Source of the DNA: Minisyncoccota bacterium
GTDB lineage: Bacteria; Patescibacteriota; Minisyncoccia; Phycocordibacterales; UBA2100
Direction: 5' to 3'
NCBI GenBank assembly: GCA_035500505.1
Contig: DATJXE010000004.1
Coordinates: 126,977 to 190,976 of the forward strand
DNA: 64,000 bases
Shown here: positions 11,987 through 58,211 of the stretch, in pieces
Position numbering within the stretch: position 1 is the stretch's first letter
Layout of the letters: the number at the start of each line of letters is the position of its first letter
Made by a program: the position numbers and the translations under genes
The notes under the pieces: model-generated
Database searches by the model: none
Told to the model about the DNA's origin: nothing
The model's input: only the letters and a program-made list of their open reading frames with translations

Positions 11987-12067
11987 TGCCGGAGGAGGGA
12001 CTCGAACCCTCACATCTTGCGATACACGATTTTGAGTCGTGCGTGTCTGCCATTCCACCACTCCGGC
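11987..12067 (-). tRNA. tRNA-Leu (anticodon CAA)
   Basis: Minus-strand read GCCGGAGTGGTGGAATGGCAGACACGCACGACTCAAAATCGTG + long variable arm + GGTTCGAGTCCCTCCTCCGGCA. Confidence 0.8.
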
Positions 12068-12150
12068 CTCGCCCTTCAAAGCTTAAGCGACGAAGGGCAA
12101 TGGTCGACATGATACTTCATTTATCGTGTGATTTGAAGTACTGTAGCCCC

Positions 12151-19256: not shown

Positions 19257-20213
19257 TCAGACTTGCACAACAATTTTCCCCACCGTGCCCCCCGACTTCA
19301 GTGCCTTGAGTGCTGTTGGCAGATTTTCGAACGTTTCTATTCTTGAGATGACAGGTTTGCCAATGTTGAGTTCGGCTATCTTTCCCATGTACTCGCGCAT
19401 CTTATCCGCCTCCTCGAATAAATAGATGAGGTTGAAGGACGACACCGAGATGTTGTTGAAGTGGAACACGTCGACGCGCGGGCGCGTGAGATATTTCCAT
19501 GCGACCGATAGATATGGAATCCGGTTCCCCCGGGGCATGTAGTGCGCGAAACCATAGACGGCCATGCGGCCGCGCTTGCCGAGCGCGCGCAGACTTTCGC
19601 GGAAAAAGCGCCCGCCCGTGCATTCCATGACGACGCTGAGCGTGCGCCCGTCGAGCGCATTCTGCAAGTCGCGGCGAAAGTTACGGCTTCGAACGATGAC
19701 CTTGTCGTATCCTTCCCGTTCGCAGAAATCCACCTTCGAAGCACTTCCGACGAGCCCGATGGTAAAACAGACGAACTTCTTCGCGATGCGATTTGCCATG
19801 ATACCGACGCCTCCCGCAGCGCTGTGAATGAGGACTGTTTCGCCTTTCTGCAAATGGCATTGGTCTACGAGGCCGTAGTAGGCGGTAAGTGCGGCGACCG
19901 GAAAAGCGGCGCCCTCTTCGAAGCTCCAGTTTTCCGGAAGCGCAACCGCCAAGCGCGCATCGACGTTGAGTGCTGTCGCGTAAGCCCCGAAACGGGTTAC
20001 TCCCATAACGCGGTCCCCTACCTTGATGTACTCTACATTCGGACCGACCTTCTCAACGACCCCCGCAAATTCAAGCCCTGGAATGAACCGCTTCCAACCA
20101 GCGGCTGTGTAGAGACCGACGACGGCGAACGCATCGGCAAAGTTGAGTCCGATGGCTTTGACGGCGACCTGTACTTCCCCCGGTTTCGGATCGCTTAGTT
20201 CCTCCTCCAGCAT
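19257..20213 (-). CDS. zinc-type/quinone oxidoreductase of the MDR superfamily
   Basis: MLEEELSDPKPGEVQVAVKAIGLNFAD...GETVLIHSAAGGVG (Rossmann GxxGxxG) ...; ORF-track N-terminal extension to 20525 overlaps the upstream gene and is rejected. Confidence 0.75.
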   Translation of the reverse strand: MLEEELSDPKPGEVQVAVKAIGLNFADAFAVVGLYTAAGWKRFIPGLEFAGVVEKVGPNVEYIKVGDRVMGVTRFGAYATALNVDARLAVALPENWSFEEGAAFPVAALTAYYGLVDQCHLQKGETVLIHSAAGGVGIMANRIAKKFVCFTIGLVGSASKVDFCEREGYDKVIVRSRNFRRDLQNALDGRTLSVVMECTGGRFFRESLRALGKRGRMAVYGFAHYMPRGNRIPYLSVAWKYLTRPRVDVFHFNNISVSSFNLIYLFEEADKMREYMGKIAELNIGKPVISRIETFENLPTALKALKSGGTVGKIVVQV

Positions 20214-20265: not shown

Positions 20266-21159
20266 CTACCCGTCCAACAAACCGAGCCTATACACATCAA
20301 AGGAGTTCTCCCCTTCGAACATATCTGACGGATTCGGAAGGTAGAGCCGCGGGCGGGAAATTTCTTGCGTGGCATCGCGCAAGAGCCGGTGGAATAATTT
20401 GAACTCCTCGTCAATTTTGTTGAAATCGATGACGTAGCGCTTGAGCTGCGCGCTGCCGTCTTTGTTGCGGGATTTTTTGCACTCGTAGACGATGAACCGC
20501 CGCACCGGCTTTCCAAAATTCTCACGCACGACGTAGTAGTTGAAGAGCGCCTGCATGACGAAGAGCGTCTTCCCTGCCTTGTCCTTGCTGAAACTTTCGA
20601 CGAATTTATGGTCGATTATGTCGAGGCTCCCTGGTTCGACGCGGGATTCGACGACGAGATCGGAGACTGCCTTGATGGGAAGCGGCAGGCCCTCGACCTT
20701 CGCCATCGCAGAGAATTCTACACCGAGCACGTTGTGCTTGGGTGGTTTGGCAAGATAAAAATTGATGACTCGGAGGTAGTCGCTTTCCATTTTAGCTCGA
20801 AGTGCTTTCTGCGCCGCTTTCGACTTCGCCTTTCCGAAATTGATCTCGAAATCCGGGATCTTGCGGATGTATTCCAAACCGAGCTCTATCCCACCGTCTT
20901 TGGCTATGCCGCCATAAAAGTGCTGAAGTGCCAGGTGCGCGGCACTACCAACTATTGAGGACGGGTTCCTCGGCGTGTCGTATATCTTCTCGACATAGCG
21001 TTTGTACCACGCGAGCGGATTGCGCAGGAAAGCCATCAGAGATGAATGGCTCCAGTATTTGATGGGTAGCTTTTGCTTTTCGAGTGCCTGTTCCGCCTCT
21101 TTTTTCCATCTGTCGAGCGACGGTTTTGATATCGCCGTCTGTGGAGTTGCGCGCGCCAT
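20266..21159 (-). CDS. PD-(D/E)XK (RecB/Cas4-like) nuclease family protein
   Basis: N-terminal YWSHSSLMAFLRNPLAWYKRYV resembles the conserved start of PDDEXK_1 nucleases; IIDHKF and VYECKK candidate D/ExK motifs. Confidence 0.5.
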   Translation of the reverse strand: MARATPQTAISKPSLDRWKKEAEQALEKQKLPIKYWSHSSLMAFLRNPLAWYKRYVEKIYDTPRNPSSIVGSAAHLALQHFYGGIAKDGGIELGLEYIRKIPDFEINFGKAKSKAAQKALRAKMESDYLRVINFYLAKPPKHNVLGVEFSAMAKVEGLPLPIKAVSDLVVESRVEPGSLDIIDHKFVESFSKDKAGKTLFVMQALFNYYVVRENFGKPVRRFIVYECKKSRNKDGSAQLKRYVIDFNKIDEEFKLFHRLLRDATQEISRPRLYLPNPSDMFEGENSFDVYRLGLLDG

Positions 21160-21189
21160 GAGTCGAGTATATCATCGTGCGAACGCGTT

Positions 21190-21387
21190 TTGGGAACGCG
21201 TTCTACGGAGGGAAACTTGGATCGGAAAGGCAGCCTCTTTGGCTACGACCGCAACGAATACCGCACAGGGATCGAGATCGACCCCGAGGGCGTTTCCGAG
21301 CTGAAAAAACTCGGAAAGGACTTCGCGGTGGCCGTCGGCAAGCTCATTCGTGCGTGCGCGCACTTCGCGGCATTCATTCCGGTGTGA
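21190..21387 (+). CDS. small hypothetical protein (65 aa)
   Basis: ORF followed by a strong hairpin terminator; no motif. Confidence 0.3.
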   Translation: MGTRSTEGNLDRKGSLFGYDRNEYRTGIEIDPEGVSELKKLGKDFAVAVGKLIRACAHFAAFIPV

Positions 21388-21408
21388 CCCATCACGCCGC
21401 AATCGTGT

Positions 21409-21446
21409 GGCCCCGCCCGAGTACCTGGGCGGGGCCGGATCTTTTC
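21409..21446 (+). terminator. intrinsic terminator (GGCCCCGCCC-loop-GGGCGGGGCC + GGATCTTTTC)
   Basis: Perfect 10-bp inverted repeat followed by T-run. Confidence 0.5.
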
Positions 21447-21567
21447 ATGAGGCTATTCACAGAAAAGGCTTGACCTGAGCCACGATAGGGATAAAATCCT
21501 GCGAGCCGTTCCAGATAGTACGGATGCGTCGGCTGCAACTCTGACAATCAATCAATGGGGACTTGGA

Positions 21568-22155
21568 ATGAAGCCTGTCTTTCTTTCACTGGTCGGGCCG
21601 CAAGCAGGCACGACCCGCCTTTACGAAAAGCTCAAGTTCGCATGGCCCGCGACGTTTCCCGACCGGACATGCGAGTTCCTCGGGGATCCGCTCGCCGAAC
21701 ACTGGGAGAAGATGAAGATCGGAGACAAGCGCAAGCGCGACTTCCCTCCGATGGCTCGCTTGTGTTTCCGGTGGGGCTTCTTCTACGCGTACAACGAAAG
21801 GGTCGTGGGTCCCGCCTTCAAGCGGGGGGTCGACGTTATTCTCGTACGCCAGTTCGGCTTCGACGTCTATGCGGGGGCAGTGGTGCACAACGACTGTGAA
21901 CGGTCGTTGTCGCTCCACATGGCTCTCGTTCCGTTCGGTGTCTACGATCTTGAACTTTGCGCTCCTCTGTACGTGTTCACCGAAGAGCTCGACGACCGGA
22001 CGCGGCTCAATCACGACCGGTATTTCGCCCCGGGTAATGGCCAGCGTTCTTGCCGAATAAATCCCGCGCTTTCCGACAACGACAAGGTCGCAGCCCTGAC
22101 GGACATCGCAAGGGCGGAGCTTGCCCGTCGGGAAGAAACAGCGGTCGCTGCGTAA
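21568..22155 (+). CDS. thymidylate-kinase-like P-loop protein with degenerate Walker A (GPQAGTT, no Lys)
   Basis: SLVGPQAGTTRLYEKL aligns with Tmk GIDGAGKTTQ...L; DRYF segment aligns with the Tmk DRY motif; upstream TTGACC-N17-TAAAAT promoter-like sequence. Confidence 0.4.
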   Translation: MKPVFLSLVGPQAGTTRLYEKLKFAWPATFPDRTCEFLGDPLAEHWEKMKIGDKRKRDFPPMARLCFRWGFFYAYNERVVGPAFKRGVDVILVRQFGFDVYAGAVVHNDCERSLSLHMALVPFGVYDLELCAPLYVFTEELDDRTRLNHDRYFAPGNGQRSCRINPALSDNDKVAALTDIARAELARREETAVAA

Positions 22156-22224
22156 CTGTCCGCCTGCTCTGTCCACATACGATACGCGGGACCTCCGGGT
22201 CCCGCGTATTTCTTTTTCAGATCG

Positions 22225-23295
22225 TTATCGCGACAATTTCCCTTTTGAGATCACGTGGAGGGCTCTCGTGTTGAGGTCGACCGTGCCCGCAAGGATCTGG
22301 AGCTTCTTCATGATCTTCGGCACGCGCTCGCGCAACACGCGCTCGCTCTCGCGCGCGAGGAACAGCGTTTTCTCTATCGCAACGCCCTGGTCGGCGCCGA
22401 TGGTGCGGAACGGGGCGCACAGGAGCAACAGCGCTCCGTCTTTTTCGGGGATGCGCTTCGCTTTCATGTTCCCGAGAACGATGTTCCCCGCAACCGCGAT
22501 GGCGTCCTCCCAACGCGGGTCGTACGGCCCGATGATGAGCGCACGATTCGGCACGTGGAGCCAGTCGAATCCTCGCCCGACCGCGATGATCTGCTCTTTG
22601 TGTTCCAGGTCAACGACCGGTGGCTTTTTCGCGCGTACTTCGGCAACATACTTCTGGTTGCCTTGGATGAGCGGTAGGAGGTCTTCGATGATGCGGTCGG
22701 GCATTTCGGGGTACATGTGCCGCAATTGGGTGTGGATGTTTTCGGCGCTCGCATCAATGTGTTCGGCAACGTCGAACGTCTGTGCGCCTTCGCTGTGGAA
22801 GATGAGTCCCCCCTCATCCGTTTCTATGCCGACGACGAGCGGAAACACGGCGATGTGGTTCCCGCCAAAAGCGAATTTGAATTGGTCGCGCAGCTTTTTC
22901 GCGCCCTTTTTCGCGGCGTTGGTGTCATATCCGTATCCCGCGCAGCCGCGGTGTTTATCTCCCTTCGAGAAATGGTAGGTCGAGAGCACGATGGTCGGGC
23001 GACCTTTGGAAACGGCATATTCGATATCTTCGAGCATGAGCCGGCCGAAAAAGGGCCAACCGAGGTCGAATTTGCCGCCGATGTTGCGGTAAGGCTTGAT
23101 GATGCCCTGCGGGGTGTTGGTCGTGAGTGCGAGGTTGAGCCTTCCGTCCATGCATTTCAGCGCAAGGATCTCGCTCGGGTGCTGGGCACGATACAAGCGC
23201 CGCGCGAGCTGAGCGCCCGGCGTGCAGAATTCGGCGCTCTGCTTTTTGTTGCGCTCCAAAATAAATTGCGTCAAATTTTGCCTCTTTTGAGCCAT
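22225..23295 (-). CDS. hypothetical protein with beta-carbonic-anhydrase-like CxDxR / HxxC motifs
   Basis: LKCMDGRLN (C-x-D-x-R) and HRGCAGYG (H-x-x-C) about 70 residues apart; ATG at 23295 preceded by A-rich region; ORF-track upstream extension rejected. Confidence 0.4.
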   Translation of the reverse strand: MAQKRQNLTQFILERNKKQSAEFCTPGAQLARRLYRAQHPSEILALKCMDGRLNLALTTNTPQGIIKPYRNIGGKFDLGWPFFGRLMLEDIEYAVSKGRPTIVLSTYHFSKGDKHRGCAGYGYDTNAAKKGAKKLRDQFKFAFGGNHIAVFPLVVGIETDEGGLIFHSEGAQTFDVAEHIDASAENIHTQLRHMYPEMPDRIIEDLLPLIQGNQKYVAEVRAKKPPVVDLEHKEQIIAVGRGFDWLHVPNRALIIGPYDPRWEDAIAVAGNIVLGNMKAKRIPEKDGALLLLCAPFRTIGADQGVAIEKTLFLARESERVLRERVPKIMKKLQILAGTVDLNTRALHVISKGKLSR

Positions 23296-23352
23296 GGTCC
23301 GCGATATCCTACTACACTGGAAAGCCCACGACAATATGGTATCCTCATCGGT

Positions 23353-23922
23353 ATGAAAACTTCTAACATCATTTGGGCGATTATCGTGGTCATCATTTTG
23401 GTCGGTGGCTGGTACATTTGGATGCAAAGTTCGGTGCCTGCACCGACTTCGAATACGAACGGTCCTTCGACCGCGCTCGGACTCAACGGCTCTCCCAACC
23501 AGGGCAACCTGGGCCAGCCCGACAACGGCCAGGTGCAGCAACCCTCCACTTCGACCTCCTCGACGGGCGATGGTTCCGCCATCAGCGACAACCTAACCCT
23601 CGGCGTCGACTCAAAAGCATCCGTCGGCACCTACCTCATCGCCTACAACGGCATGACGCTCTACACCTATTCGGGCGATTCTGCCGGAGTCTCCAACTGC
23701 ACCGGAAGCTGCGCCGTGAACTGGCCACCCTACACCGTGCCGGCCGGTATGCACCTCAACTTGCAGGCGGGCGTGACGGGAGCCGCGAGCACCATCACTC
23801 GCGCCGACGGCACCACCCAGGTGACCTACAAAGGCATGCCGCTCTACTTCTTCGTTGGTGACACAACCTCTGGCGCAGTGACCGGGGACGGTGAAGGAGG
23901 TTTTTCCGTAGCGAAACCCTAG
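23353..23922 (+). CDS. secreted lipoprotein-like protein with tandem Yx(FWY)xxD motifs (COG4315-like)
   Basis: N-terminal TM IIWAIIVVIILVGGWYIW; two copies of the motif (LYTYSGD, LYFFVGD). Confidence 0.65.
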   Translation: MKTSNIIWAIIVVIILVGGWYIWMQSSVPAPTSNTNGPSTALGLNGSPNQGNLGQPDNGQVQQPSTSTSSTGDGSAISDNLTLGVDSKASVGTYLIAYNGMTLYTYSGDSAGVSNCTGSCAVNWPPYTVPAGMHLNLQAGVTGAASTITRADGTTQVTYKGMPLYFFVGDTTSGAVTGDGEGGFSVAKP

Positions 23923-24006
23923 TTTTTCGGGAATTCTCGACGAGTGCTCCCCTCGCTGGGGAGTAATGGAAAAGGCGTTCGAACGTCTTCATGAGGTTAG
24001 GAGCTA

Positions 24007-24333
24007 ATGCTTATATCTATGCTTTTTTCTTTCATCATCGGGATTATCCTCGGAGCGATCGCGGTCATATTTGCATTCCAGAATGTCGCGGTCGTGACGG
24101 TTAGTTTCTTCACGTGGCAACTCACCGGTTCTTTGGCGATCGTTATTCTCGGCACGCTTCTGTGCGGCATCGTGCTCACCCTCCTCTTTCTCCTGCCGAG
24201 CGTCATTCGCGATGAGTTCTACCTCGCGACCATCAAACGCCAAAAGCGCGAGGCCGAGGATGAACTCGCGCGCATCAAGAATTCTCCCGCTCCCGCGTCC
24301 GTTTCTTCGACCACGGCGGTTGTAACCCCCTAA
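24007..24333 (+). CDS. LapA/DUF1049-like small inner-membrane protein
   Basis: Two TM helices followed by charged helical tail KRQKREAEDELARIK. Confidence 0.45.
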   Translation: MLISMLFSFIIGIILGAIAVIFAFQNVAVVTVSFFTWQLTGSLAIVILGTLLCGIVLTLLFLLPSVIRDEFYLATIKRQKREAEDELARIKNSPAPASVSSTTAVVTP

Positions 24334-24392
24334 GTTTGGACAACTCGGTCCGATAGGCGTAGGATTTCTACAGCGAATTCTGGCGGGAGAAA

Positions 24393-24851
24393 GTGCCCGT
24401 CGTCGTAGCAATGGGAATGCCCATGTCGAATCCGATGAAGAGAGTCTATGTTCTTTTCGTGGGGATGAGCCTGCCTGCGTTCGGGAATGAAGACCGAAAA
24501 CTCCGCCAAGCGCTGCTTGCAGAAGACAAGTGCTGGGCGCTCGTCACAGTGCCTGGGATAACGGTGCAAGAGGCTGCGATTCGCGCCAGCACAAGCGCGA
24601 ACCTTGATATTGTATTCATCTCAAACCAGGTCGAGTATTCGATATATTCACTCGCCGAGGGCTGTAAGGAACTTGCCGAGAAGTTGGCAAAGCGATCAAG
24701 CCCGCCCTGGGTCTGCTTCGACAAGCGCTGGCTCTACTCTCTGGCAGCGAGCTTCCGGACCAACGGGCTTACCATCTGTGAAGGAAGACTTGAGGAAATT
24801 ATCCGGAGACGGTGGGAGCATCAACGTCGAAAGGTGCATCATGTCGGTTAG
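24393..24851 (+). CDS. hypothetical protein (152 aa)
   Basis: ORF with several Cys; stop overlaps next start (ATGTCGGTTAG). Confidence 0.35.
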   Translation: MPVVVAMGMPMSNPMKRVYVLFVGMSLPAFGNEDRKLRQALLAEDKCWALVTVPGITVQEAAIRASTSANLDIVFISNQVEYSIYSLAEGCKELAEKLAKRSSPPWVCFDKRWLYSLAASFRTNGLTICEGRLEEIIRRRWEHQRRKVHHVG

Positions 24852-24984
24852 AGACAGAATAAGAACGCTGCTCGATAATCGCCTCTTGAACCTCTTGGCC
24901 TGCGGCATCGGTCTCGCGGTCGCGATCGGAGCACTCGGGCTTCTTGGGGGCCAGCTGCGCTTGCCCACTTTCCCGTTCGGCTGA
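24840..24984 (+). CDS. 48-aa single-TM peptide
   Basis: MSVRDRIRTLLDNRLLNLLACGIGLAVAIGALGLLGG; translationally coupled to preceding ORF. Confidence 0.3.
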
Positions 24985-25005
24985 GCCGAACCCAGCATCA
25001 TCAAT

Positions 25006-25040
25006 CCGGCCGGAGCCTCGCGCTCCGGCCGTTTGATTTT
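25006..25040 (+). terminator. cassette module A: GC hairpin (CCGGCCGGAGC-loop-GCTCCGGCCG) + TTTGATTTT
   Basis: First of five related hairpin+T-run elements; stem flanks CGGCCG conserved, inner stem GGAGC/GCTCC. Confidence 0.6.
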
Positions 25041-25061
25041 GGGAACTGCGAGGTATAGCAT
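25033..25061 (+). promoter_or_regulatory. cassette promoter A: TTGATT-N15-TATAGCAT (sigma70-like -35 / extended -10)
   Basis: Identical spacing and near-identical sequence in copies B and C; GGAGG RBS 8 nt before ATG 25082. Confidence 0.5.
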
Positions 25062-25081
25062 TCCAGGCAGGAGGTGCCGCC

Positions 25082-25276
25082 ATGAGCAAGAGTATTCTTG
25101 GGACGTTCTTCGCCCGCCTCACATCGCGAGAACCGCCGTTCTGCGTTGAATGTGGGAGCACCGACATGGAGCTCGTTGACAAGGTCCTTGTCTGCAAACT
25201 CTGCGCCAACAGGCAGGCCAACGCTGCGGCCGACCGCCGCATCCTGCCCGAACTCGACACGTTCTCCGGGCACTAA
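25082..25276 (+). CDS. 64-aa zinc-ribbon protein (CxxC-N16-CxxC)
   Basis: FCVECGST...LVCKLCAN; first gene of cassette A. Confidence 0.5.
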   Translation: MSKSILGTFFARLTSREPPFCVECGSTDMELVDKVLVCKLCANRQANAAADRRILPELDTFSGH

Positions 25277-25287
25277 CGGAGGGGAAA

Positions 25288-25530
25288 ATGACACACTATG
25301 CTCCCGATCCGCACCACTCCTCGGCAACGGCAAGGGAGGTTGTCCGGGTCGTTCTCATCGCCTTCGCGGTCCTTTACATTTACATGGCGTTCAAGGGCCT
25401 GCCTCACTGGCCGGTCCTGGAAGAGAACGCGCTCACGCCTCGCGAACAGTATATCCTCGGAGGACTCGGCGTCGTCTGCGCCGCTCTGGCCGCCACCTGG
25501 TCCTGGATATGGCCGACCGGGGACGAGTGA
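25288..25530 (+). CDS. 80-aa 2-TM miniprotein
   Basis: GGAGGGGAAA RBS; helices VVRVVLIAFAVLYIYMAF and ILGGLGVVCAALAATWSWIW; 12 nt after previous stop. Confidence 0.5.
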   Translation: MTHYAPDPHHSSATAREVVRVVLIAFAVLYIYMAFKGLPHWPVLEENALTPREQYILGGLGVVCAALAATWSWIWPTGDE

Positions 25531-25556
25531 GTAGTTCGTCTCCGAATGATACCGAA

Positions 25557-25587
25557 CGGCCGGCAATTTGCTGGCCGTTTGATTTTG
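25557..25587 (+). terminator. cassette module B hairpin (CGGCCGGC-AATTT-GCTGGCCG) + TTTGATTTTG
   Basis: Same flanks as A with different, compensatory inner stem. Confidence 0.6.
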
Positions 25588-25607
25588 TGGGCCAGGAGGT
25601 ATAGCAT
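25579..25607 (+). promoter_or_regulatory. cassette promoter B: TTGATT-N15-TATAGCAT
   Basis: Copy of promoter A; GGAGGA RBS before ATG 25631. Confidence 0.5.
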
Positions 25608-25630
25608 CCCGACAGTTGGGAGGATCCGCC

Positions 25631-26098
25631 ATGAAACGCATCTTTCGAAGGGTGCTGCGCCCTTTGCGCATCCCCCTCAAACTGCTCAAACTTTTCGTCC
25701 TGCTAGTCGTCATGCCCCTATTGGGATCTGTCTGCTTCTACGCAAGATTCTTCAGCCACGAGAAACTGACTGACTACGGATACTGGTTCTTGCCCGGCGT
25801 CGTATTGGCTTGCATCGCTTTCCCTGTATGGTCCTGGTTCTTCGGGACGATGCGGAATGATCTGAAAATTATCGGCCGATTCCTGAACGAGAAGCCGAAC
25901 GGGAAGTATCCGGAGCGCTCGAACGGCATCGTCCTTGCAGGGCTCATCGTTTTTTCGTTTTTGTTCCTGGGTGGCGCCCTGGAATTGGTGAAGCACAATC
26001 CCGAAAAGATGTCGTACGTATTCGCAGCCATGCTCGTACTTGCCGGCGCCCTTCTCGTCCTGACATTTGCTCACGGACACCTGCGCGGCAAGCTCTAG
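25631..26098 (+). CDS. 155-aa 4-TM membrane miniprotein
   Basis: ATG 25631 with GGAGGA RBS (ORF-track TTG 25616 rejected); four hydrophobic helices. Confidence 0.55.
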   Translation: MKRIFRRVLRPLRIPLKLLKLFVLLVVMPLLGSVCFYARFFSHEKLTDYGYWFLPGVVLACIAFPVWSWFFGTMRNDLKIIGRFLNEKPNGKYPERSNGIVLAGLIVFSFLFLGGALELVKHNPEKMSYVFAAMLVLAGALLVLTFAHGHLRGKL

Positions 26099-26116
26099 CT
26101 TGCGATGACAGTCGAA

Positions 26117-26148
26117 ACGGCCGGGTTCTCCCCCGGCCGTTTGATTTT
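26117..26148 (+). terminator. cassette module C hairpin (ACGGCCGGG-TTCTCC-CCCGGCCGT) + TTGATTTTG
   Basis: Third copy of the element. Confidence 0.6.
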
Positions 26149-26168
26149 GTGAAGAGAGCGTATAGGAT
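26141..26168 (+). promoter_or_regulatory. cassette promoter C: TTGATT-N14-TATAGGAT
   Basis: Slightly diverged copy; GAGAGGA RBS before ATG 26191. Confidence 0.45.
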
Positions 26169-26190
26169 GATTGCAGATTGAGAGGACACA

Positions 26191-26574
26191 ATGACATCAG
26201 ACACAGACGACGCCCCCGACCTTGATTACTTCGCTTCGCTGGCAGTTGATCGTTTTTATAGGAACTGTTGGCGTATAACGAACAGCTTCTTCTACGGATT
26301 CGGCATCTACAGCGCGATAATCCTCTTGCTCGAGGTGCCGGGCGCTGGAACCACATGGTTTTGGCTGGGCGCCGGCCTTGCCGCGCTCCTCGATATACAA
26401 TGGTCGGTCTACGTTCACTTCTTCATTCGCCTGCAGCGCGGTACCTTCGGCATCAGACCGGACGAGGCGGATATGATCGGCCGTGCGATCGACAAGTGGC
26501 GTGACGAACGAGGATTGGAGAATCAACGCGAGGCCTATCGCCAAGAGTTATGGGAGATCTTTCGCCTCCAATGA
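26191..26574 (+). CDS. 127-aa 2-TM miniprotein
   Basis: Trp/Phe-rich helices FFYGFGIYSAIILLLEV and TTWFWLGAGLAALLDIQW; charged C-tail. Confidence 0.5.
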   Translation: MTSDTDDAPDLDYFASLAVDRFYRNCWRITNSFFYGFGIYSAIILLLEVPGAGTTWFWLGAGLAALLDIQWSVYVHFFIRLQRGTFGIRPDEADMIGRAIDKWRDERGLENQREAYRQELWEIFRLQ

Positions 26575-26597
26575 ACGAAAGAACTTGGAGAATGTCC

Positions 26598-26744
26598 ATG
26601 AGCGATACGATGATGAGACTATTGTTCTACACTTCGCCCGCCCTTGTTGCACTGCCGCTCCTGATCGTCTGGGGCGTTCGTGCAGTCCGGGAATTCAAAC
26701 GAAGCTGGAACTGGTTCTGGTGCAAAAGAGAGGCGCGACAATGA
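26598..26744 (+). CDS. 49-aa 1-TM peptide
   Basis: GGAGAA RBS 7 nt before ATG 26598; MSDTMMRLLFYTSPALVALPLLIVWGV; stop overlaps next start (ATGA). Confidence 0.35.
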   Translation: MSDTMMRLLFYTSPALVALPLLIVWGVRAVREFKRSWNWFWCKREARQ

Positions 26745-26938
26745 TCAGCCGCCGCGGCGTGACGAAGGGTATCCTCATCGTATTGTTCGTCCTTATCGTG
26801 GCCTCTTGTATCGTGGGTGTCGTCGTACTCGATCCGTGGACGATGGACGTGAGGCCCCTGGAACCGGTCAGACTAATCTTCGGGCTAATGTTCTTCGGCC
26901 TCGGCTTAGGTGGCATCAAGTCGATATTCGAGGCCTGA
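26741..26938 (+). CDS. 65-aa 2-TM miniprotein
   Basis: ILIVLFVLIVASCIVGVVVL and LIFGLMFFGLGLGGI; translationally coupled to preceding peptide. Confidence 0.4.
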   Translation: MISRRGVTKGILIVLFVLIVASCIVGVVVLDPWTMDVRPLEPVRLIFGLMFFGLGLGGIKSIFEA

Positions 26939-26957
26939 AAAGGCGGGCAACATGAAA

Positions 26958-26988
26958 ACGGCCGAGACACCTCGGCCGTTTTGCTTGC
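26958..26988 (+). terminator. cassette module D hairpin (ACGGCCGAG-ACAC-CTCGGCCGT) + TTTTGCTTG, followed by second hairpin CCTCCC...GGGAGG
   Basis: Fourth copy, inner stem again compensatory. Confidence 0.55.
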
Positions 26989-27011
26989 CTCCCCGCCTCG
27001 GGTGGGAGGCT

Positions 27012-27039
27012 TGGACAATACAGAACCCTGATATAGCAT
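27012..27039 (+). promoter_or_regulatory. cassette promoter D: TTGGAC-N14-TATAGCAT
   Basis: TATAGCAT octamer identical to A/B. Confidence 0.4.
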
Positions 27040-27109
27040 TCCTAGAGGAAATTTGAGCTTGAGCCCGAAACCTTGCGCGTTCTCGAAGTTGCCTGACAAG
27101 GGGAAAACC

Positions 27110-27379
27110 ATGGGAACAGTCGTTACGTTGCGGCAGGATCCGAATCGGCCCATCGAACAAAGGCTCTATGCGCGGTCGATGGTCGCGTGCACATTGAGAA
27201 CTTACGCTTTGAGCGAGGCCTACTTGCACGTCTTGGAATACCATCCCGAATCGCAGACGCTCCAGGATCGGTTTGCTCTTGCCGTCGAAATCGCCAAATG
27301 GGCATTGTTCAAAGCCGGAAAAAGCCTGATAGAAAATCCCCCGTTCATCGTGTCTGAATTGAGACCTCCGCCTTCGTGA
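27110..27379 (+). CDS. 89-aa soluble hypothetical protein
   Basis: AAGGGGA RBS before ATG 27110 preferred over ORF-track TTG 27053 (RBS spacing only 2-3 nt). Confidence 0.4.
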   Translation: MGTVVTLRQDPNRPIEQRLYARSMVACTLRTYALSEAYLHVLEYHPESQTLQDRFALAVEIAKWALFKAGKSLIENPPFIVSELRPPPS

Positions 27380-27397
27380 TGGATCAGGGAGACGAAA

Positions 27398-27721
27398 ATG
27401 GTCAATAAAGCATTGAGGAGCATGGTTGGCGTCGCCTTGGGAAGCCTGCGGGAACATTCCTTCGAGATCGGCGTAATCCTCGGAGCCCTGGCGTTCGGCA
27501 TGATGATACTCATCGTGCCGATCCTCCTGGTCGGCGAGCCGCTAACAGGTACACTGTCATTGCGCCAGGAGCTGGTCGGGATATTCAGCGCCATGGTAGG
27601 AACCATGACCGTAATCACGATCTCGCTGAGCATTCTTTGCTCCCGCCCTGATACGGGAAGCAACCCTCCACGCGGCCGGAAACCTCCTCCGGCCGTTTCG
27701 TTTTGCCTTCTGGAAGTTTAA
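27398..27721 (+). CDS. 107-aa 3-TM miniprotein
   Basis: GGGAGACGAAA RBS; helices GVILGALAFGMMILIVPILLVG, LVGIFSAMVGTMTVITISLSIL. Confidence 0.5.
   Translation: MVNKALRSMVGVALGSLREHSFEIGVILGALAFGMMILIVPILLVGEPLTGTLSLRQELVGIFSAMVGTMTVITISLSILCSRPDTGSNPPRGRKPPPAVSFCLLEV
27673..27705 (+). terminator. cassette module E hairpin (CGGCCGGA-AACCTCC-TCCGGCCG) + TTTCGTTTTG; array end
   Basis: Fifth copy, lacks the downstream TATAGCAT; overlaps last codons of 27398..27721. Confidence 0.55.
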
Positions 27722-28057
27722 CTAATTGGACACTGGGGTTGTGCCAGGGTCTTGGCGGCTGTACACGAAGGTCCAAACTTTGTTGTCAGGATCCGGTCGG
27801 GTAACAGTCGTAATGGCATCGAGCTCTCCTTGAGAAGTTTGATCATTCACCCAACCTTTTTGTTTCAACCTGTTCCAGATAGTTGTTGACACTGCGCTCC
27901 CATGTTCGTTCCAAAAACCGTCGAGTTCCCTCCTGCTCACGGCTCCGGCGAAATGGAATTCAAATTCGATCACGTTCCCGTGGTCGCGAATATTTGTCTT
28001 GACAAGCTCAATGTATTCCGGCGATGTAGATCGGGGACGTTCTGGGGATTCTTTCAT
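27722..28057 (-). CDS. hypothetical protein (111 aa)
   Basis: ORF convergent on the array; no motifs. Confidence 0.4.
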   Translation of the reverse strand: MKESPERPRSTSPEYIELVKTNIRDHGNVIEFEFHFAGAVSRRELDGFWNEHGSAVSTTIWNRLKQKGWVNDQTSQGELDAITTVTRPDPDNKVWTFVYSRQDPGTTPVSN

Positions 28058-28080
28058 TGGGAGCAGTTTACCACCTCAGA

Positions 28081-29340
28081 TCAGTAACTCCGCAACTGCT
28101 TCGCCCGCTCGTGGAAGCGGATACGTTCCAATGCCTTGGCTTCTATTTGGCGGATGCGCTCGCGCGTGACGCCGAATTCGCGGCCGACTTCTTCGAGGGT
28201 GTAGCAGATGCCCTCGTCGGTGAGACCGTTGCGCATTTCCAAGATCTTGCGCTCTTTCGGAGAAAGTTCGTCGAGGATGTCCATCATTTGCTCGGAGAGA
28301 ATGCGGCGCGAGGCGTCTTGGTCGGGTGATGCGATGGTTTCGTCCGCAATGAAGCTGCCAAGCGTTGAGCGCTCGTCGTCATCCTCGCCTACCGGACTCT
28401 CCAAAGAGACAGTGTCTTGGTTGATTTTCTGGATGGTGTAGATTTTCTCCACCTCAATGCCCATTTCGGCGGCGATTTCTTCCGGAAGCGGATCGCGGCC
28501 CAAATGTTGGCTCAATTCCCTCACTTTTTGCTTATATTTCGCGATAGTTTCGACCATGTGCACCGGGATGCGGATGGTGCGCGACTGGTCGGCGAGCGCG
28601 CGGGTGATGGCCTGGCGGATCCACCAGGTCGCGTAGGTCGAGAATTTGTAGCCCTTGGTGTAGTCGAATTTGTCGACTGCCTTGAAGAGACCAAGGTTGC
28701 CTTCCTGGATGAGGTCGAGGAGCGTGAGGTCGGGCGAGCGATTCACATATTTCTTGGCGATGGAAACCACGAGGCGGAGGTTGGAGCGCGCAAGAATGCC
28801 ACGAGCTTCATCGTCGCCTTCGACGATGCGCTTCGCAAGCGTCTTTTCCTGCTCACCATTCAAAAGCGGATACTGCCCTATCTCGCGCAAATACATCTGG
28901 ACGGAATCGTAGCCGGAGTCGGAGCGGCGATTCTGCAACTTCTTGCGCTCAAGCACGGAATCTGCCGAGGTGTCCTCGAGCATGCCGCCGCCTTCGAGCA
29001 CGTCGATGCCGGCCGCGCCGAAGCGCTCATACATCTCTTCGAGCAACGTCATGTTGTCCTCTATCGTCGGGAACTCGCGAAGGATCTCGTCGTAGGTGAT
29101 GTACCCGCGCTCGCGGCCGAGTTTGATGAGCGCTTCCACCTTGGTCTGCGCTTTGCCCTGCAAAAGAAGCGACTTCGCCTTCGAGCGTGCCGCGGGACGC
29201 TTCGAAGTTTTGCGTGCTCTGCCAACGGCAAAGCGCGCAGCGCGAGAGGACGCCGAACGGCGTTTTGCGACATGGGAAGAGGCGGCGCGCTTCACGCGCT
29301 TCATCGTCCTCTTTTTCGTGTGTTTTTTGGATGAAGCCAT
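28081..29340 (-). CDS. rpoD: RNA polymerase primary sigma factor (sigma-70)
   Basis: Regions 2-4: [50 protein letters not shown]; basic N-terminal tail. Confidence 0.9.
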
Positions 29341-51939: not shown

Positions 51940-53244
51940 TTAGTTGCGCGAGATGACGATGCGCGGTGCGCCGCCACTGTTCGTGATGGACATCGAGTCG
52001 CTCGTCGGGCGGTCGAAGCCCATGACCGGAAGCGCTTCGATGGTCGAGACTTTCGACGGAGCTTCGATGCGCGTTTCAACGACCGGGGCAACTTTCTTTT
52101 CGATCGTCACCGGAGTGAACGTGCGGCGAGGGATCATCGAGCCCGCGAAGAGTGCCATGCCGCCTTTGTAGTAGACCAAGAGGTAGCCGGCAGCAACCGC
52201 GAAGACCGCGAGCATCAGCCAGTACATCGTGTCACCAAGCGTGCCGAGGTCGAAGCCCGTGTACGGTATCTGCGAGAGCGAGACCGACGGATAGGCGTTG
52301 CCGACCGAAACGTAGGTGTTGCACGTCGCGCTCTGGCCGTTGTAACCGTAGACCGTGAGCACATAGCTCGTCGAGCCGTACGGGTGGACGCTCAAGCTTC
52401 CGCTCGGAGCGACGTTGCCGTAGCTCGAGAGCGTCGCCGAGGTCGCGCCGTAGCTCTGCCAGCTGAGGTAGGTGTACTGACCGTTCTGGATGGAGTTGGG
52501 CGAGGCGTAGATGGAGCACGAGACGTTCTGGTAGTTGTAGTACGTCGGATAGGTGTAATTGTAGTTGTACGGGTAGGTGTACGTCGGGTAAGTGTATTGC
52601 ACCGGGTAGTAGGTCGTCGGGACCTGCGCGATCGGGATGACCGTGGTGGTCGTGTTGGTGTTGCCGCTGTTGCTGATGTTCGTGTTGCAGCTTCCGCCCG
52701 TGCAAGTGTTGTACGTCGAGTTCGAGATAGGCGTTACGATCTGTTGCTGCTGCTGCTGCTGCTGTTGCTGTTGCTGCTGCTGTTGGACGACCGGAGCAGA
52801 GTAATAGCTGCGCGGTGCCGAGATCGCGAATGGAGTGGAATAACCGATCGAGTAGTTGTAGGTCGGGATGGAGTAGTTGTTGTAGCCGTAGCCAGTGTCT
52901 CCGTAGATCGGGTAGGTCTCCTCAGAGTACGTTACGCCGCCTTCCTCGACGCAAGTGTCGCAGCCGCTAAAATCGAGATAACCGCCGTTGTCGCCTGAGA
53001 TGTCCGCATAGCCGCCGTTGTCGCCGGAGAAGTCCAAGTATCCGCCGTTGTCGCCGGAAGTATCCACGTAGCCGCCGTTGTCGCCGGAGAAATCGAGGTA
53101 GCCGCCGTTGTCGCCGGAGAAGTCGATATACCCGCCGTCATCCTGGGCGTGCGCAAAAAGCGGAAGGGCAAGAGCGAAGCCGGAAAGGACCAAAGCTCCC
53201 GTCAAGAGGATAGAAAAGGCTTTCAAATTTAGCTGTGCGGACAT
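51940..53244 (-). CDS. type I membrane-anchored surface protein: 6x DNGGYxDxSG decapeptide repeats, poly-Q tract, Y/N-rich segment, beta domain, C-terminal TM
   Basis: Signal peptide AFSILLTGALVLSGFALALPLFAHA; repeats and low-complexity segments seen directly; TM YWLMLAVFAVAAGYLLVYY near C-terminus. Confidence 0.6.
   Translation of the reverse strand: MSAQLNLKAFSILLTGALVLSGFALALPLFAHAQDDGGYIDFSGDNGGYLDFSGDNGGYVDTSGDNGGYLDFSGDNGGYADISGDNGGYLDFSGCDTCVEEGGVTYSEETYPIYGDTGYGYNNYSIPTYNYSIGYSTPFAISAPRSYYSAPVVQQQQQQQQQQQQQQQIVTPISNSTYNTCTGGSCNTNISNSGNTNTTTTVIPIAQVPTTYYPVQYTYPTYTYPYNYNYTYPTYYNYQNVSCSIYASPNSIQNGQYTYLSWQSYGATSATLSSYGNVAPSGSLSVHPYGSTSYVLTVYGYNGQSATCNTYVSVGNAYPSVSLSQIPYTGFDLGTLGDTMYWLMLAVFAVAAGYLLVYYKGGMALFAGSMIPRRTFTPVTIEKKVAPVVETRIEAPSKVSTIEALPVMGFDRPTSDSMSITNSGGAPRIVISRN
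52741..52785 (-). repeat. CTG/TTG (CAG/CAA in coding strand) trinucleotide tract of about 15 units encoding poly-glutamine
   Basis: ctgttgctgctgctgctgctgctgttgctgttgctgctgctgttg. Confidence 0.85.
52966..53145 (-). repeat. six tandem 30-nt in-frame repeats (GCCGCCGTTGTCGCCGGAGAAGTCNAGGTA-like) encoding DNGGYxDxSG
   Basis: Visible periodicity in DNA and protein. Confidence 0.8.
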
Positions 53245-53383
53245 ATGCGTGGTGGTTTACTTGTAAATTAGTAATGCTTTTGTAAGACGTGAGAATTATA
53301 CTTACATTTTTCCTTATGTCAAGTATTGAGAATTTCGGGGGACGGGCCTTTTTTAGTGGCCCGCCCCTCGGAGTTTGAAGCGT

Positions 53384-53800
53384 CTACTGGCGCCACGCTT
53401 CGATCGTGTCGGAGTGACGCGGCTGCGGTTGCGGCTGCGTCGACGCCGGCGCCGGGGCGTTCGCCGGCGAGTTGTCGGCGTGCGGCACATAGCCGCGATC
53501 GCACAAGACGTGGGTGCGATAGTCGCCGCGGAACTTCTGCTCGGCCGTCATCGCCATCTTGGGCCCGCCAGTCGTATTCTTGACCTTGACGAGCTTGATG
53601 GCGCGCATCGGGCAGACTTTGCCGAAGCCGGGCGTCATCATGTTGGCGGTGATGGGAGCGCCGTTCCAGTCGCCGCCGGTGATGGTCCAGGTCTGGCCTT
53701 CGAACTCGAAGGTGTTGTTGGGATTGGACTGCGCCTGGGCGGCGTTGGCGGCAGTGAGCGCGGCGATGCAGATCGCCGAAGTAAGGAGGAACTTTTTCAT
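53384..53800 (-). CDS. secreted hypothetical protein with signal peptide
   Basis: MKKFLLTSAICIAALTAANAAQAQ signal; Pro/Gln-rich C-terminus. Confidence 0.5.
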   Translation of the reverse strand: MKKFLLTSAICIAALTAANAAQAQSNPNNTFEFEGQTWTITGGDWNGAPITANMMTPGFGKVCPMRAIKLVKVKNTTGGPKMAMTAEQKFRGDYRTHVLCDRGYVPHADNSPANAPAPASTQPQPQPRHSDTIEAWRQ

Positions 53801-54011
53801 CGGATTTCCCTTTGCAAAGGTCCCTCGGCTCACATCGAAGCTGATGTGCGAGGGCTGTATGGGCGCGAATTCTCGTGCACAGACAGCCCTCGCAAAGTAG
53901 ACGTTGAATCAAAGAACAACGGTTGAAAGCCGAACCAGCAGATTAGGATAATCCCTTGGCTTTGGCTATTAACCGCGACATTATATCACCCACAACTAGA
54001 TTGTCAAGTAT

Positions 54012-54050
54012 GTAAAACGACCCGGGCTATAGAGGCTCCGGGCCGTTTTC
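54012..54050 (-). terminator. candidate intrinsic terminator for 54072..54809
   Basis: Hairpin GGCCCGG...CCGGGTC with flanking T-rich runs on both strands. Confidence 0.35.
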
Positions 54051-54071
54051 TGCACGAAGCAGAATTAGACT

Positions 54072-54809
54072 TCAGCAGTCGGGCTCAATGGCGTAAATGG
54101 GCGCGCCATTGCTCATTTCGCCGACCTTGGTTCTGCTCTTGACTAAAGAGCAATCTTTTTCACCATTGCCAGCAATGTGCCCATCACCGGCATCGGCCGC
54201 CTTGTTGAACGTGAACCTGACTCCATTGCCGAGTGTCGCCATGGCGAGCACCGCAATGAGAAGTATCACGAGGATCACGATGACAACGCTCGCAGCCGAG
54301 CCGGGAACCGGCGGGGCAACGGGCGCAGGGATCGTCGGAGGCAGGGGTGCAGGCGGTGCGATTGCTCGCGCAGCCGTCACTTGCGTCCACGCCGGCCCAT
54401 GCTTGTGCGATTGGAACACCAGCAATGAGAGCCAGCTGAATACCAGGAGTACGATCAGTAAGTCCCTGGCATGGGGCACAGCGAGCAGATCAACGGTCTT
54501 GGGATCGTTTTGTTGCAGGCCGAGGAATACCCAGCCAGCAGTGAGCGTAATGACCAAGCACGCCGTTGCCGAAGCAAGGTAGCTCAACCAGTAAAGCGGC
54601 ATGTTGCCACCTTCGCCGAGTGCGGCATTCAGCAGTTCCAACGCGATATAGACGATCGCGATGTACATGCCATCCTGCACGAGTGAGATCGTCAGGCCAT
54701 AAGCGTTGATGTCCTTCAGACCGATGACGTAGTAGGTAGCCGCAGCCGCAGCCGTCGCGAAGACGACAACAGCGTCGAGCCACGTGATTGTAACGCGCAG
54801 CGGGTTCAT
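54072..54809 (-). CDS. polytopic membrane hypothetical protein
   Basis: AAGGAAG RBS before ATG 54809; 6+ TM helices; Pro/Ala-rich segment PPAPLPPTIPAPVAPPVPG. Confidence 0.5.
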   Translation of the reverse strand: MNPLRVTITWLDAVVVFATAAAAATYYVIGLKDINAYGLTISLVQDGMYIAIVYIALELLNAALGEGGNMPLYWLSYLASATACLVITLTAGWVFLGLQQNDPKTVDLLAVPHARDLLIVLLVFSWLSLLVFQSHKHGPAWTQVTAARAIAPPAPLPPTIPAPVAPPVPGSAASVVIVILVILLIAVLAMATLGNGVRFTFNKAADAGDGHIAGNGEKDCSLVKSRTKVGEMSNGAPIYAIEPDC

Positions 54810-54852
54810 GGTACTTCCTTTCGTTACCGTTGGAGTTGTTGGATTCGGGGTT

Positions 54853-55206
54853 TCAGGTTCGGGTTCGTCCGACGTGCTTGTTGCATATCCGACGAACCAG
54901 GCGAAAGGTACCGCCGATGCCAAGCATGATCAGCTTGACGGCGGCCACCGCTTCCGAAAAGAGTAATATCCGCTCGAAGTTGATGAACCTCGAGAATGTT
55001 TCGAAACGATCACCCCAATCCGGAGCGAACGTTTCGATCAGACTTCCGACGTGTTTGACCAGACCAAGATTGAGGTCCAGTCCATCGTTCAGCAATTTCG
55101 GCTTGAGGATAAATACAAGCACGAAACAAATTGCCGTAACAGTGAAGGCGCCCCCCTTGAAGAGGTGGTGCCTGCCTTGCTCCCACATGTATCGGTGCCA
55201 CCTCAT
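54853..55206 (-). CDS. membrane hypothetical protein (117 aa)
   Basis: Hydrophobic helices; immediately upstream of 54072..54809. Confidence 0.4.
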   Translation of the reverse strand: MRWHRYMWEQGRHHLFKGGAFTVTAICFVLVFILKPKLLNDGLDLNLGLVKHVGSLIETFAPDWGDRFETFSRFINFERILLFSEAVAAVKLIMLGIGGTFRLVRRICNKHVGRTRT

Positions 55207-55307
55207 GGCCCCTCCTTGATTTTGAATGAGCTCGCCTGCGCCGAAGCGCAGAGCGAACGAGCATAGTATAGTAAAAGTGGCCCCCTGTCAAGGGTTACCG
55301 GCTTTCT

Positions 55308-56519: not shown

Positions 56520-56561
56520 ACGGGCATGATAGCAACGAAGACGATACGCGCAAACGCCATA

Positions 56562-57095: not shown

Positions 57096-57184
57096 GGCTC
57101 TTATCATAACAGTGCATAAAAAAAATGCATGGCGGGTCCGAGGACTCCGCCATGCGAGGGTGACCGTTTGCCAGGCGGTAAAGA

Positions 57185-58042: not shown

Positions 58043-58211
58043 GACATACCTTCCTTTCCTATGGGTATGTGTTGCGAACTGGCGGATGCCAGAGTGCTCT
58101 CTGCACTGATGCGCAGTGTAGCATCAAATTACCCCTCTGTCAATAAATTCTAAAATAAAAAGGGCGCCGCGAACTTCGCGGCGCCCTGTCTTCGTTGAAC
58201 GGGGTCTCAAT

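Follow-up and report, generated by a model that had tools for sequence, protein, structure and literature searches.

The subject of this analysis is an array of small genes in a 64-kb stretch of DNA from a Minisyncoccota bacterium (contig DATJXE010000004.1, positions 126,977 to 190,976), here termed the window, with positions counted from its first letter. The array is found at positions 24336–27721 on the + strand and consists of ten small open reading frames (ORFs), most of which encode proteins with 1–4 transmembrane (TM) segments, in five predicted transcription units: O0b-O0c, O1-O2, O3, O4-O5-O6 and O7-O8. Hairpins of one sequence family lie between the ORF groups, and the array is situated between rpoD and a gene for a PD-(D/E)XK nuclease. 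An original prediction, made by a model from the sequence alone, had placed eight same-strand ORFs between 24.99 and 27.72 kb, in at least four minigene units that are independently promoted and terminated. The core of the array is indeed there, but the array starts earlier, with a predicted promoter at 24336 and the additional O0b and O0c, and the predicted promoters and hairpins give five units.

The array has housekeeping surroundings. Genes for PrsW, HSP20, alcohol dehydrogenase and the PD-(D/E)XK nuclease lie to one side of it, and rpoD, dnaG, rpoC and rpoB lie to the other. The neighboring rpoD displays 79%–95% identity to rpoD of metagenome-assembled genomes (MAGs) of Candidatus Kaiserbacteria/Paceibacterota, and the host is therefore a Kaiserbacteria-like bacterium of the candidate phyla radiation (CPR). 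The ORFs of the array, with TM counts from hydropathy, are:

O0b, 24411–24851, + strand: soluble protein of 146 amino acids (aa), alternative GTG start at 24393; called on the source contig, annotated frame the best coding frame
O0c, 24841–24984, + strand: 47 aa, one TM segment, 11-nt overlap with O0b; its unit ends at hairpin W1
O1, 25082–25276, + strand: zinc-ribbon protein of 64 aa, CxxC-N13-CxxC, soluble
O2, 25288–25530, + strand: 80 aa, two TM segments
O3, 25631–26098, + strand: 155 aa, four TM segments
O4, 26191–26574, + strand: 127 aa, all-helical
O5, 26598–26744, + strand: 48 aa, one TM segment
O6, 26741–26938, + strand: 65 aa, two TM segments, ATGA overlap with O5
O7, 27059–27379, + strand: soluble helical-hairpin protein, 106 aa from TTG at 27059, or 89 aa from ATG at 27110 (27110–27379)
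O8, 27398–27721, + strand: 107 aa, two to three TM segments

All eight ORFs of the original prediction are present on the + strand and are also predicted by an independent gene-calling program on their public source contig (ENA ERZ27256576 k141_3102742, 196 kb, labelled Candidatus Paceibacterota). Two details required correction: the smallest ORF, given as 49 aa, is O5 with 48 aa, and the zinc ribbon of O1, given as CxxC-N16-CxxC, has a spacing of N13. The description of the products as hydrophobic miniproteins holds for most of them, but O4 is below the standard hydropathy threshold. The ORFs are unrelated to each other and, as had been proposed, no housekeeping operon explains the array.

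A codon model was trained on 14 housekeeping genes from the window. It favours the annotated frame in eight of the ten ORFs (O0b, O0c, O1–O4, O6 and O8) and rejects long antisense and alternative ORFs. The GC content at third codon positions (GC3) of these frame-preferred ORFs is 0.63–0.77, as compared with 0.74 for the genome. O2 is 95% identical to its copy in a sister strain (L082/L101; L-numbers are labels of the loci compared, and numbers such as P0003 those of the proteins compared). The two copies differ by 8 synonymous and 5 non-synonymous changes (dN/dS 0.19), and these changes indicate purifying selection on O2. A lack of conservation in related genomes had been named as a sign that the ORFs are not genes. 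Such a lack is seen for most of them, but their coding nature is still upheld; because of the codon frames of eight ORFs, the dN/dS of O2 and the distant homologues of O7 and O0b (below), the missing conservation is attributed to turnover of cassettes and not to non-coding sequence.

Five strong hairpins with the general form CGGCCGG-(variable inner stem and loop)-CCGGCCG-TTTGATTTTG are found between the ORF groups. Alignment and folds show perfect stems of 9–13 bp with loops of 3–7 nt, folding energies are −17.6 to −24.7 kcal/mol, and z-scores against shuffled sequences are −3.0 to −6.3. The stems of W1–W4 start 17–23 nt past stop codons. A GC-rich stem-loop with a U-tract directly after a stop codon is the pattern of an intrinsic terminator, and the hairpins are predicted to be terminators. 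Hairpins and putative promoters are located as follows, bit scores being those of a covariance model described below:

P0, 24336–24365, + strand: TTGGACA-N16/17-TAGGAT, predicted promoter of unit U0 (O0b-O0c), directly after lapA
W1, 25001–25043, + strand: stem at 25007–25031 with TTTGATTTTG tail, found by terminator scan, 52.4 bits, −24.7 kcal/mol
P1, 25033–25061, + strand: TTGATT (−35)-N17-TAGCAT, overlapping the T-tract of the terminator
W2, 25551–25589, + strand: 39.4 bits, −22.8 kcal/mol
P2, 25579–25607, + strand: 82% identical to P1 over 38 nt
W3, 26112–26151, + strand: 49.8 bits, −23.3 kcal/mol
P3, 26141–26168, + strand: TTGATT-N16-TAGGAT
W4, 26953–26986, + strand: the more diverged fifth member, with diverged tail TTTTGCTT, 29.5 bits, −21.1 kcal/mol
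Second hairpin, 26987–27010, + strand: GCCTCCCCGCCTCGGGTGGGAGGC, GC-rich, between W4 and P4, −17 kcal/mol, z −2.0, not of the W family
P4, 27011–27039, + strand: TTGGACA-N16-TAGCAT, the canonical form of the sister arrays
W5, 27667–27707, + strand: hairpin at 27672–27696 with a degraded tail (TTTCGTTTTG) and without a following promoter, closes the array, 42.6 bits, −17.6 kcal/mol

A −10 box (TATAG[C/G]AT) and a Shine-Dalgarno site come after each of the hairpins W1–W4. In modules 1–3 the tail of the predicted terminator itself gives the −35 box (TTGATT, a 16–17-nt spacer, then TAGCAT or TAGGAT), and in module 4 there is a separate TTGGACA −35 box. The near-identical hairpin, promoter and ribosome-binding site module of the original prediction is thus a real repeat: GGCCGTTTGATTTTG has exactly three copies in the window (25027, 25573 and 26135), all in the array, plus a copy with two mismatches at 27691. 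The spacer of the module had been given as N13. It is in fact N12 (N11 in copy 3), and for this reason a literal search with the N13 pattern finds no match in the window.

The TATAG[C/G]AT octamer has four occurrences in the 64 kb, all of them in the array and upstream of an ORF start, at 20–23 nt from the starts of O1, O3 and O4 and at 19 nt from the TTG of O7 (27059; 70 nt from the ATG at 27110). Full TTGGACA-type promoters in the window are two in number (P0 and P4), both in the array. A covariance model of the hairpin was built from 14 copies, and 1.4 Mb was searched with it (the window, 6.6 kb of additional flank, 80 rpoD loci of related species and the sister arrays). In the 70.6 kb of host genome (window and extra flank, on the same contig), it finds five + strand copies, all in the array.

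The last result bears on whether the module is a common genome-wide element, which had been named as a finding that would speak against the array. Repetitive extragenic palindromes and bacterial interspersed mosaic elements (REP/BIME, or REPtron) occur as many dispersed intergenic copies throughout a genome together with a cognate REP-associated tyrosine transposase (RAYT). The array hairpins are similar to these in being short, GC-rich extragenic palindromes after genes, with a conserved sequence family. They differ in their confinement to one locus and in that the window has no RAYT gene; a RAYT-like gene in one relative (L050) has different repeats. The REP/BIME reading was rejected, as was a CRISPR reading.

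The array could also represent several small operons of an ordinary kind that encode lineage-specific hypothetical membrane proteins. The likeness of the modules would then have come about by local duplication or gene conversion and would play no part in gene turnover. In form, the hairpins are typical intrinsic terminators. A TTGGACA-type box is also present upstream of rpoD in L008 and L020 and therefore looks like an ordinary strong sigma-70-type promoter. Modules within an array are more alike than those between arrays; L034, for example, has three near-identical spacers. These points are in accord with ordinary operons. On the other hand, no hairpin copy is found beside the other clusters of hypothetical proteins in the 70.6 kb, and the comparison with related species, given next, makes this explanation improbable.

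The array is part of a variable slot (21160–28080) between the PD-(D/E)XK nuclease gene (20266–21159, − strand) and rpoD (28081–29340, − strand). The flanking proteins were mapped onto the 80 rpoD loci, and the bracket of rpoD and the nuclease (PDDEXK_1) is common to 37 of the loci examined. The size of the slot among relatives extends from 54 nt to ~10 kb, a range not expected of ordinary operons:

L051: 54 nt
L053: 72 nt
L011: 162 nt
Many species: 2–6 kb
The window: 6.9 kb
L002, L030 and L087: 9–10 kb

The nuclease gene is present even where the slot is empty and therefore looks like a resident of the dnaG-rpoD region. Rough ORF calls give 119 ORFs in the slots, of which 95 point towards rpoD. 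The same pair of flanking genes encloses different content in different species, and the slot that holds the array has no mobility genes. L001, the closest species with a full slot (RpoD 88% identical), has kept the lipoprotein gene and lapA, and a methyltransferase and a 145-aa ORF replace the minigenes. Most of 93 slot ORFs of relatives have no Pfam match. Recognized cargo comprises SAM methyltransferases, GNATs, LapA, CsoSCA-like proteins, DUF1905, HicA, PemK, ArsR, DUF4145 and a few enzymes, and the few cassette families that recur across species do so at different positions. Variability of the island among related genomes, proposed earlier as something to look for, was looked for by comparison and found.

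In 14 further species, whose slot genes are entirely different, the hairpin family marks this slot as well. At E ≤ 0.05 all 23 sites in relatives are downstream of rpoD, at a distance of 0.15–5.7 kb, and 21 are on the strand convergent with rpoD; the upstream flanks of rpoD in the relatives' loci searched contain none. TTGGACA-type promoters are about 12-fold enriched in slots, with six in L034. The original prediction did not contain this conserved single-slot nature across Kaiserbacteria, nor the module junctions that appear to be points of cassette gain, loss and shuffling.

One sister genome, L087, was recovered by a metagenome scan for the exact module and has ~70% nt identity to the window in housekeeping genes. 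Its whole 10-kb interval from the nuclease gene to rpoD is an array of ~17 same-strand genes. There are at least ten hairpins with an identical 17-nt CCGGCCGTTTGATTTTG and eight predicted promoters of the form TTGGACAA-N16-TA(T)AG(G/C)AT. The cargo comprises a homologue of O7, two SAM methyltransferases, a PemK toxin and many small membrane proteins without known relatives. Between these genomes of ~70% identity, the outer stem and 10-nt tail of the hairpin are invariant in at least 14 copies, and inner stems and loops vary with compensating changes.

Three independent comparisons between strains place breaks of homology at the modules or in the flank, which is not expected of ordinary operons. 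The first is with the sister strain L082/L101, which has 86%–94% nt identity to the window and an O0c copy of 82% identity. In this strain O0c is followed by hairpin A, by a promoter spacer that differs from the window's and by a cassette of two genes (107 aa and 134 aa). Then comes hairpin B, and after it the spacer, promoter and ribosome-binding site that follow W1 in the window. The stem-loop of hairpin A is identical to that of W1. W1 thus consists of the hairpin A stem-loop joined to the sequence downstream of hairpin B, which points to a crossover inside the shared CCGGCCG-TTTGATTTTG. In the same strain 165 nt of O1 are deleted, so that O1 is lost, and O2 is kept.

In the second comparison, L090 is 99.4% identical to L087 up to a hairpin; then follow an 80-nt insertion, a drop to 88% identity and a different next cassette. 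Both of these comparisons show insertion or deletion at the level of the cassette with the crossover in the conserved repeat core. The third, L089 with L087, is of another type. Identity is 58%–71% in the housekeeping flanks and in the body of the nuclease gene, and 100% over 4.8 kb of the array. The switch, from about 65% to 100%, falls within a conserved motif in the 5′-terminal part of the nuclease gene. Such a pattern would be expected if homologous recombination in the flank had replaced an entire array; a chimeric contig is the alternative, although only ~23 nt are shared before the switch.

Two further features of the relatives' slots were observed. L087 (11877–11960 and 15647–15690) and L090 (11549–11628 and ~12040–12090) have an extra insert between hairpin and promoter. 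It holds two inverted repeats, one a near-perfect palindrome of 24 nt (TTGCTAAyTCAATTGAATTAGCAA) and the other CTATTCGC...GCGAATAG-like. The inserts appear to be operator-like or similar to miniature inverted-repeat transposable elements, and they are not in the window. In addition, direct partial copies of the rpoD 3′ end and its terminator are found inside the slot in L087 (17887–17990 and 19465–19570; 100 nt at 91% and 40 nt), where they flank a segment with the PemK toxin and a 234-aa ORF, and in L016 (6368–6423 and 6809–6851; 56 and 43 nt). These duplications look like scars of insertion at the end of rpoD; the window has none.

The minigenes are probably, though not with high confidence, the main part of a five-unit cassette array without integrase, in a recombination hot-spot between rpoD and the PD-(D/E)XK nuclease gene, with the joint of the module as the point of exchange. 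Each cassette would be an insulated expression unit: a sigma-70-type promoter (−35 TTGGACA, or the TTGATT of the terminator; −10 TATAG[C/G]AT), a leader that is very short and contains a Shine-Dalgarno site, between one and three ORFs that often overlap and, at the end, a strong intrinsic terminator of the conserved family. Transcripts would have their 5′ ends 6–9 nt past TATAG[C/G]AT and their 3′ ends in the UUUGAUUUUG tails. Since units of this type are insulated, genes could be gained or lost without disturbing neighbors. All cassettes point at the essential dnaG-rpoD operon, and a terminator after each unit would therefore also block antisense read-through into that operon. The conserved joint (CCGGCCG-TTTGATTTTG and promoter) would be the site of insertion, deletion and reshuffling of cassettes, and whole arrays would be swapped by homologous recombination in the conserved flanking genes. 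Exchange may proceed by short-homology or homologous recombination, probably after uptake of DNA.

Several observations weigh against this interpretation. The promoters and terminators of the array are predictions at the level of consensus sequences. Codon signal is weak for O5 and O7, and in the window the terminators on the left side of the slot (21.2–24.3 kb) are unrelated ones. The O8 frame continues through W5, its last ~17 codons being the terminator stem and tail (27672–27721); either O8 lost its original stop codon or the W5 hairpin was acquired on top of O8. The strain-level junctions are three in number, all from metagenome assemblies, and the L089 contig could be chimeric. The invariance of the outer stem and TTTGATTTTG tail exceeds the needs of termination or of generic homologous recombination, and in L087 the tail is exact even where a separate TTGGACA −35 box comes next; together these are a hint of sequence-specific recognition. 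As part of the cassette interpretation itself, it is a guess, made with low confidence, that the cassette proteins have dispensable accessory roles, at the envelope or host interface and of a defence type. This guess comes from the loss of O1 and the cassette insertions and deletions (dispensability), from the membrane location, and from the toxin, methyltransferase and acetyltransferase cassettes of the sister arrays.

The hint of sequence-specific recognition leads to another explanation, a site-specific cassette system that is a functional analogue of integrons. The folded single-stranded hairpin with its TTTGATTTTG tail would be the recombination site of a dedicated enzyme that excises and inserts circular cassettes. 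Its gene would lie at the border of the slot or elsewhere, and candidates would be the PD-(D/E)XK nuclease, an HUH/Y1 enzyme or a recombinase of an unknown kind. The invariant outer stem and tail with compensating changes in the inner parts, the crossover points in the conserved core, the single orientation of the elements and their confinement to one slot in many species would all be expected of such a system. So would the cargo, which is like that of chromosomal integrons (toxin-antitoxin (TA) toxins, GNATs, methyltransferases and genes without a family match), and a nuclease gene that is always at the border of the slot. That gene is, however, present also at empty slots. No integrase or transposase is found within the 70.6 kb around the array, the stems are short, perfect and terminator-like, and the junctions are equally explained by recombination between direct repeats of 17–25 nt. 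A site-specific system is on this evidence doubtful, and plain recombination between short conserved repeats is favoured over site-specific recombination on a folded hairpin. There is likewise only a modest chance that Kaiserbacteria have an undescribed integron-like capture platform, in which the hairpin with the CCGGCCG-TTTGATTTTG core would be terminator, recombination site and source of some −35 boxes at once, acted on by an enzyme unrelated to integron integrases.

A Y1 transposase was considered as the enzyme that recognizes the hairpin. An IS200/RAYT-like gene of this type (Pfam Y1_Tnp, E = 4e-7) is directly downstream of rpoD in L050 (11201–11893, + strand), with homologues elsewhere in L010, L018, L025 and L063. 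It is flanked by its own, unrelated palindromic repeats (CCACCAGG...CCTGGTGG), and the window has no Y1_Tnp homologue; the candidate was ruled out on these two grounds. Save for this gene of another class, a Pfam search reveals no recombinase domain among the slot ORFs of relatives.

Integrons have a gene for the IntI tyrosine recombinase with an attI site and a promoter, Pc, adjoining the cassette array; clusters of attC sites lacking integron integrases (CALINs) are attC arrays without the integrase, and Vibrio species carry super-integrons. The attC sites are 55–140 nt long, with R″-L″...L′-R′ boxes (R′ = GTTRRRY) and extrahelical bases, and integron cassettes are mostly promoterless and driven from Pc. 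The array resembles integrons and CALINs as a long same-strand series of small genes mostly without known relatives, in which a cassette ends in a conserved, orientation-specific hairpin repeat with conserved core and variable center. Presence or absence of cassettes at the strain level with crossover in the conserved core, and TA toxins, GNATs and methyltransferases in the sister arrays, are further similarities. In contrast to integrons, there is no IntI, attI or Pc; no recombinase domain is among the called genes of contig positions 122,859–193,495. The hairpins are, by inspection of the alignment and folds, perfect terminator stems of 25–33 nt that lack both the bipartite R/L boxes and the extrahelical bases of attC sites, and the tail GTTTGAT has T at position 4 and does not fit GTTRRRY. 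Each unit has its own −35/−10 boxes and ribosome-binding site, and the array, carried by a CPR bacterium, has a fixed slot in which it converges on rpoD. With no recombinase nearby, no attC structure and promoters of its own, the array was not accepted as an integron.

Another comparison is with Neisseria and its minimal mobile elements (Saunders & Snyder 2002, as cited in PMC1538595). These elements, and in general hot-spots of horizontal gene transfer (HGT) or flexible genomic islands flanked by core genes, are like the rpoD slot in having conserved flanking genes, a different content of whole genes and no mobility genes, and replacement is compatible with homologous recombination in the flanks. 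The rpoD slot differs in that its content is modular, punctuated by a conserved hairpin-promoter element that marks internal breakpoints, and reaches at least 17 genes.

The ten proteins of the array were searched against Pfam, PHROGs and NCBIfam with no significant match, and against PADLOC with zero matches at E ≤ 0.1. O3 and O4 match only themselves among 5.8 billion proteins and have no homologue beyond their own genome. By profile, O7 has one relative, P0003 in the L087 sister array (33% identity), and O5 has a 59% match across 34 aa in L034. O0b belongs to a small uncharacterized family of ~140-aa proteins with 26 representatives, with no Pfam match and no PDB relative. After clustering at 90% identity each array protein is in a cluster of one or two sequences. 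The predicted structure of O4 is helical with low confidence (pLDDT 62.7), and that of O7 is a helical hairpin (pLDDT 70.7) without a significant PDB fold match. A permissive Rfam search of the island gives sub-threshold noise only, and exact-sequence look-ups of rpoD, a DNA polymerase III ORF and P0037 gave no match.

The small size and TM segments of most products could suggest an array of toxic or protective peptides, i.e. type I toxins, holin-like proteins, bacteriocin immunity or phage exclusion, which could coexist with the cassette interpretation. O2 does show faint holin-like matches (a PHROG holin at E = 0.33 and TIGR01592 at E = 0.014), both far below the cut-off, and PemK and HicA toxins are present in sister arrays. 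No significant match to PADLOC, PHROGs, Pfam or NCBIfam was found, none of the adjacent genes is for a bacteriocin, a toxin, secretion or a phage function, the ORFs show no relationship to one another, and viral contigs searched with O3, O4, O7 and the DNA module contain no relatives. A peptide array of this type is highly improbable, and the earlier suggestion of bacteriocin-immunity, phage-exclusion or membrane-depolarising effectors was not borne out.

A phage moron is a promoter-gene-terminator unit inserted between genes of a phage or prophage. The units of the array are autonomous in a similar way, with a predicted sigma-70-type promoter and factor-independent terminator, and this anatomy could suggest a remnant of a prophage or plasmid with moron-like units. 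Unlike morons, however, the units are outside a phage and in tandem, and terminator and promoter are fused in one conserved module. Phage or plasmid genes are missing from the slot and from the 70 kb around it; among the called genes of contig positions 122,859–193,495 there is no integrase, transposase or phage gene. There is no PHROG match, O3, O4, O7 and the DNA module have no match in 2.9 million viral contigs, neither the cassettes nor the hairpins turned up on a phage or plasmid genome of Kaiserbacteria, and GC content and GC3 match those of the host genome. A prophage or plasmid origin is extremely improbable, and the prophage reading was rejected.

The array therefore shares traits with integrons/CALINs, minimal mobile elements, HGT hot-spots and morons and is a member of none of these. 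A search of full-text literature on integrons in Patescibacteria, genomic islands of Kaiserbacteria and variable cassettes of CPR bacteria yielded no description of such an array. Bacteria of the CPR (Patescibacteria) have tiny genomes, depend on hosts and encode many small unannotated membrane proteins, and their acquisition and turnover of genes are poorly understood. The locus would be a fixed chromosomal "shelf" beside rpoD across a clade of genus to family level, on which genes are kept as plug-and-play cassettes and exchanged at the hairpin-promoter joint. If the joint is a dedicated recombination site, this would be a new mechanism of cassette capture outside the integron paradigm, and an integron-like platform would mean that genome-reduced episymbionts own an rpoD-anchored locus for sampling small envelope and defence genes. 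Even with homologous recombination alone, the module would be a promoter-terminator part that is natural and compact, the hairpin covariance model a marker for accessory genes in Kaiserbacteria MAGs, and the strain-variable membrane miniproteins a defined set of candidates for roles in host attachment or phage resistance.

Some additional observations concern the neighborhood of the array. Om1 (27722–28057, − strand), an ORF of 111 aa directly downstream of rpoD and co-oriented with it, has the best coding frame and homologues beside rpoD in L012, L016 and L020; it is not called on the source contig. Also in the slot (22225–23295, − strand) is a 356-aa gene with a weak match to the catalytic domain of carboxysome shell carbonic anhydrase (CsoSCA_cat). 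Homologues with 49%–75% identity are found in the same slot in L012, L020, L027, L036 and L068, which is unexpected for CPR bacteria. A protein from a public collection, P0006 (4676 aa), has 28 tandem stretches matching the O0b domain (~130 aa); O0b is therefore the stand-alone form of a domain from which a giant repeat protein is also made up.

At window positions 53000–60000 (L098 4611–14580) there is a long same-strand series of hypothetical proteins without Pfam match beside a sortase gene. The hairpin element has no copy in this series, which is possibly a cell-surface cluster. Just upstream of the window (L097 549–3945, contig 123.4–126.8 kb), and adjoining gyrA, are small genes with Pfam matches to type IV secretion system (T4SS) pilin and TrbC-like proteins, together with a gene for a 444-aa unknown protein; this cluster may represent a conjugation- or pilus-like apparatus. 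The gene for a zinc-type alcohol dehydrogenase (19257–20213, − strand) is located between the HSP20 and PD-(D/E)XK nuclease genes. It is not at that position in L087 and most related loci, and this place therefore appears to be a second, smaller variable point.

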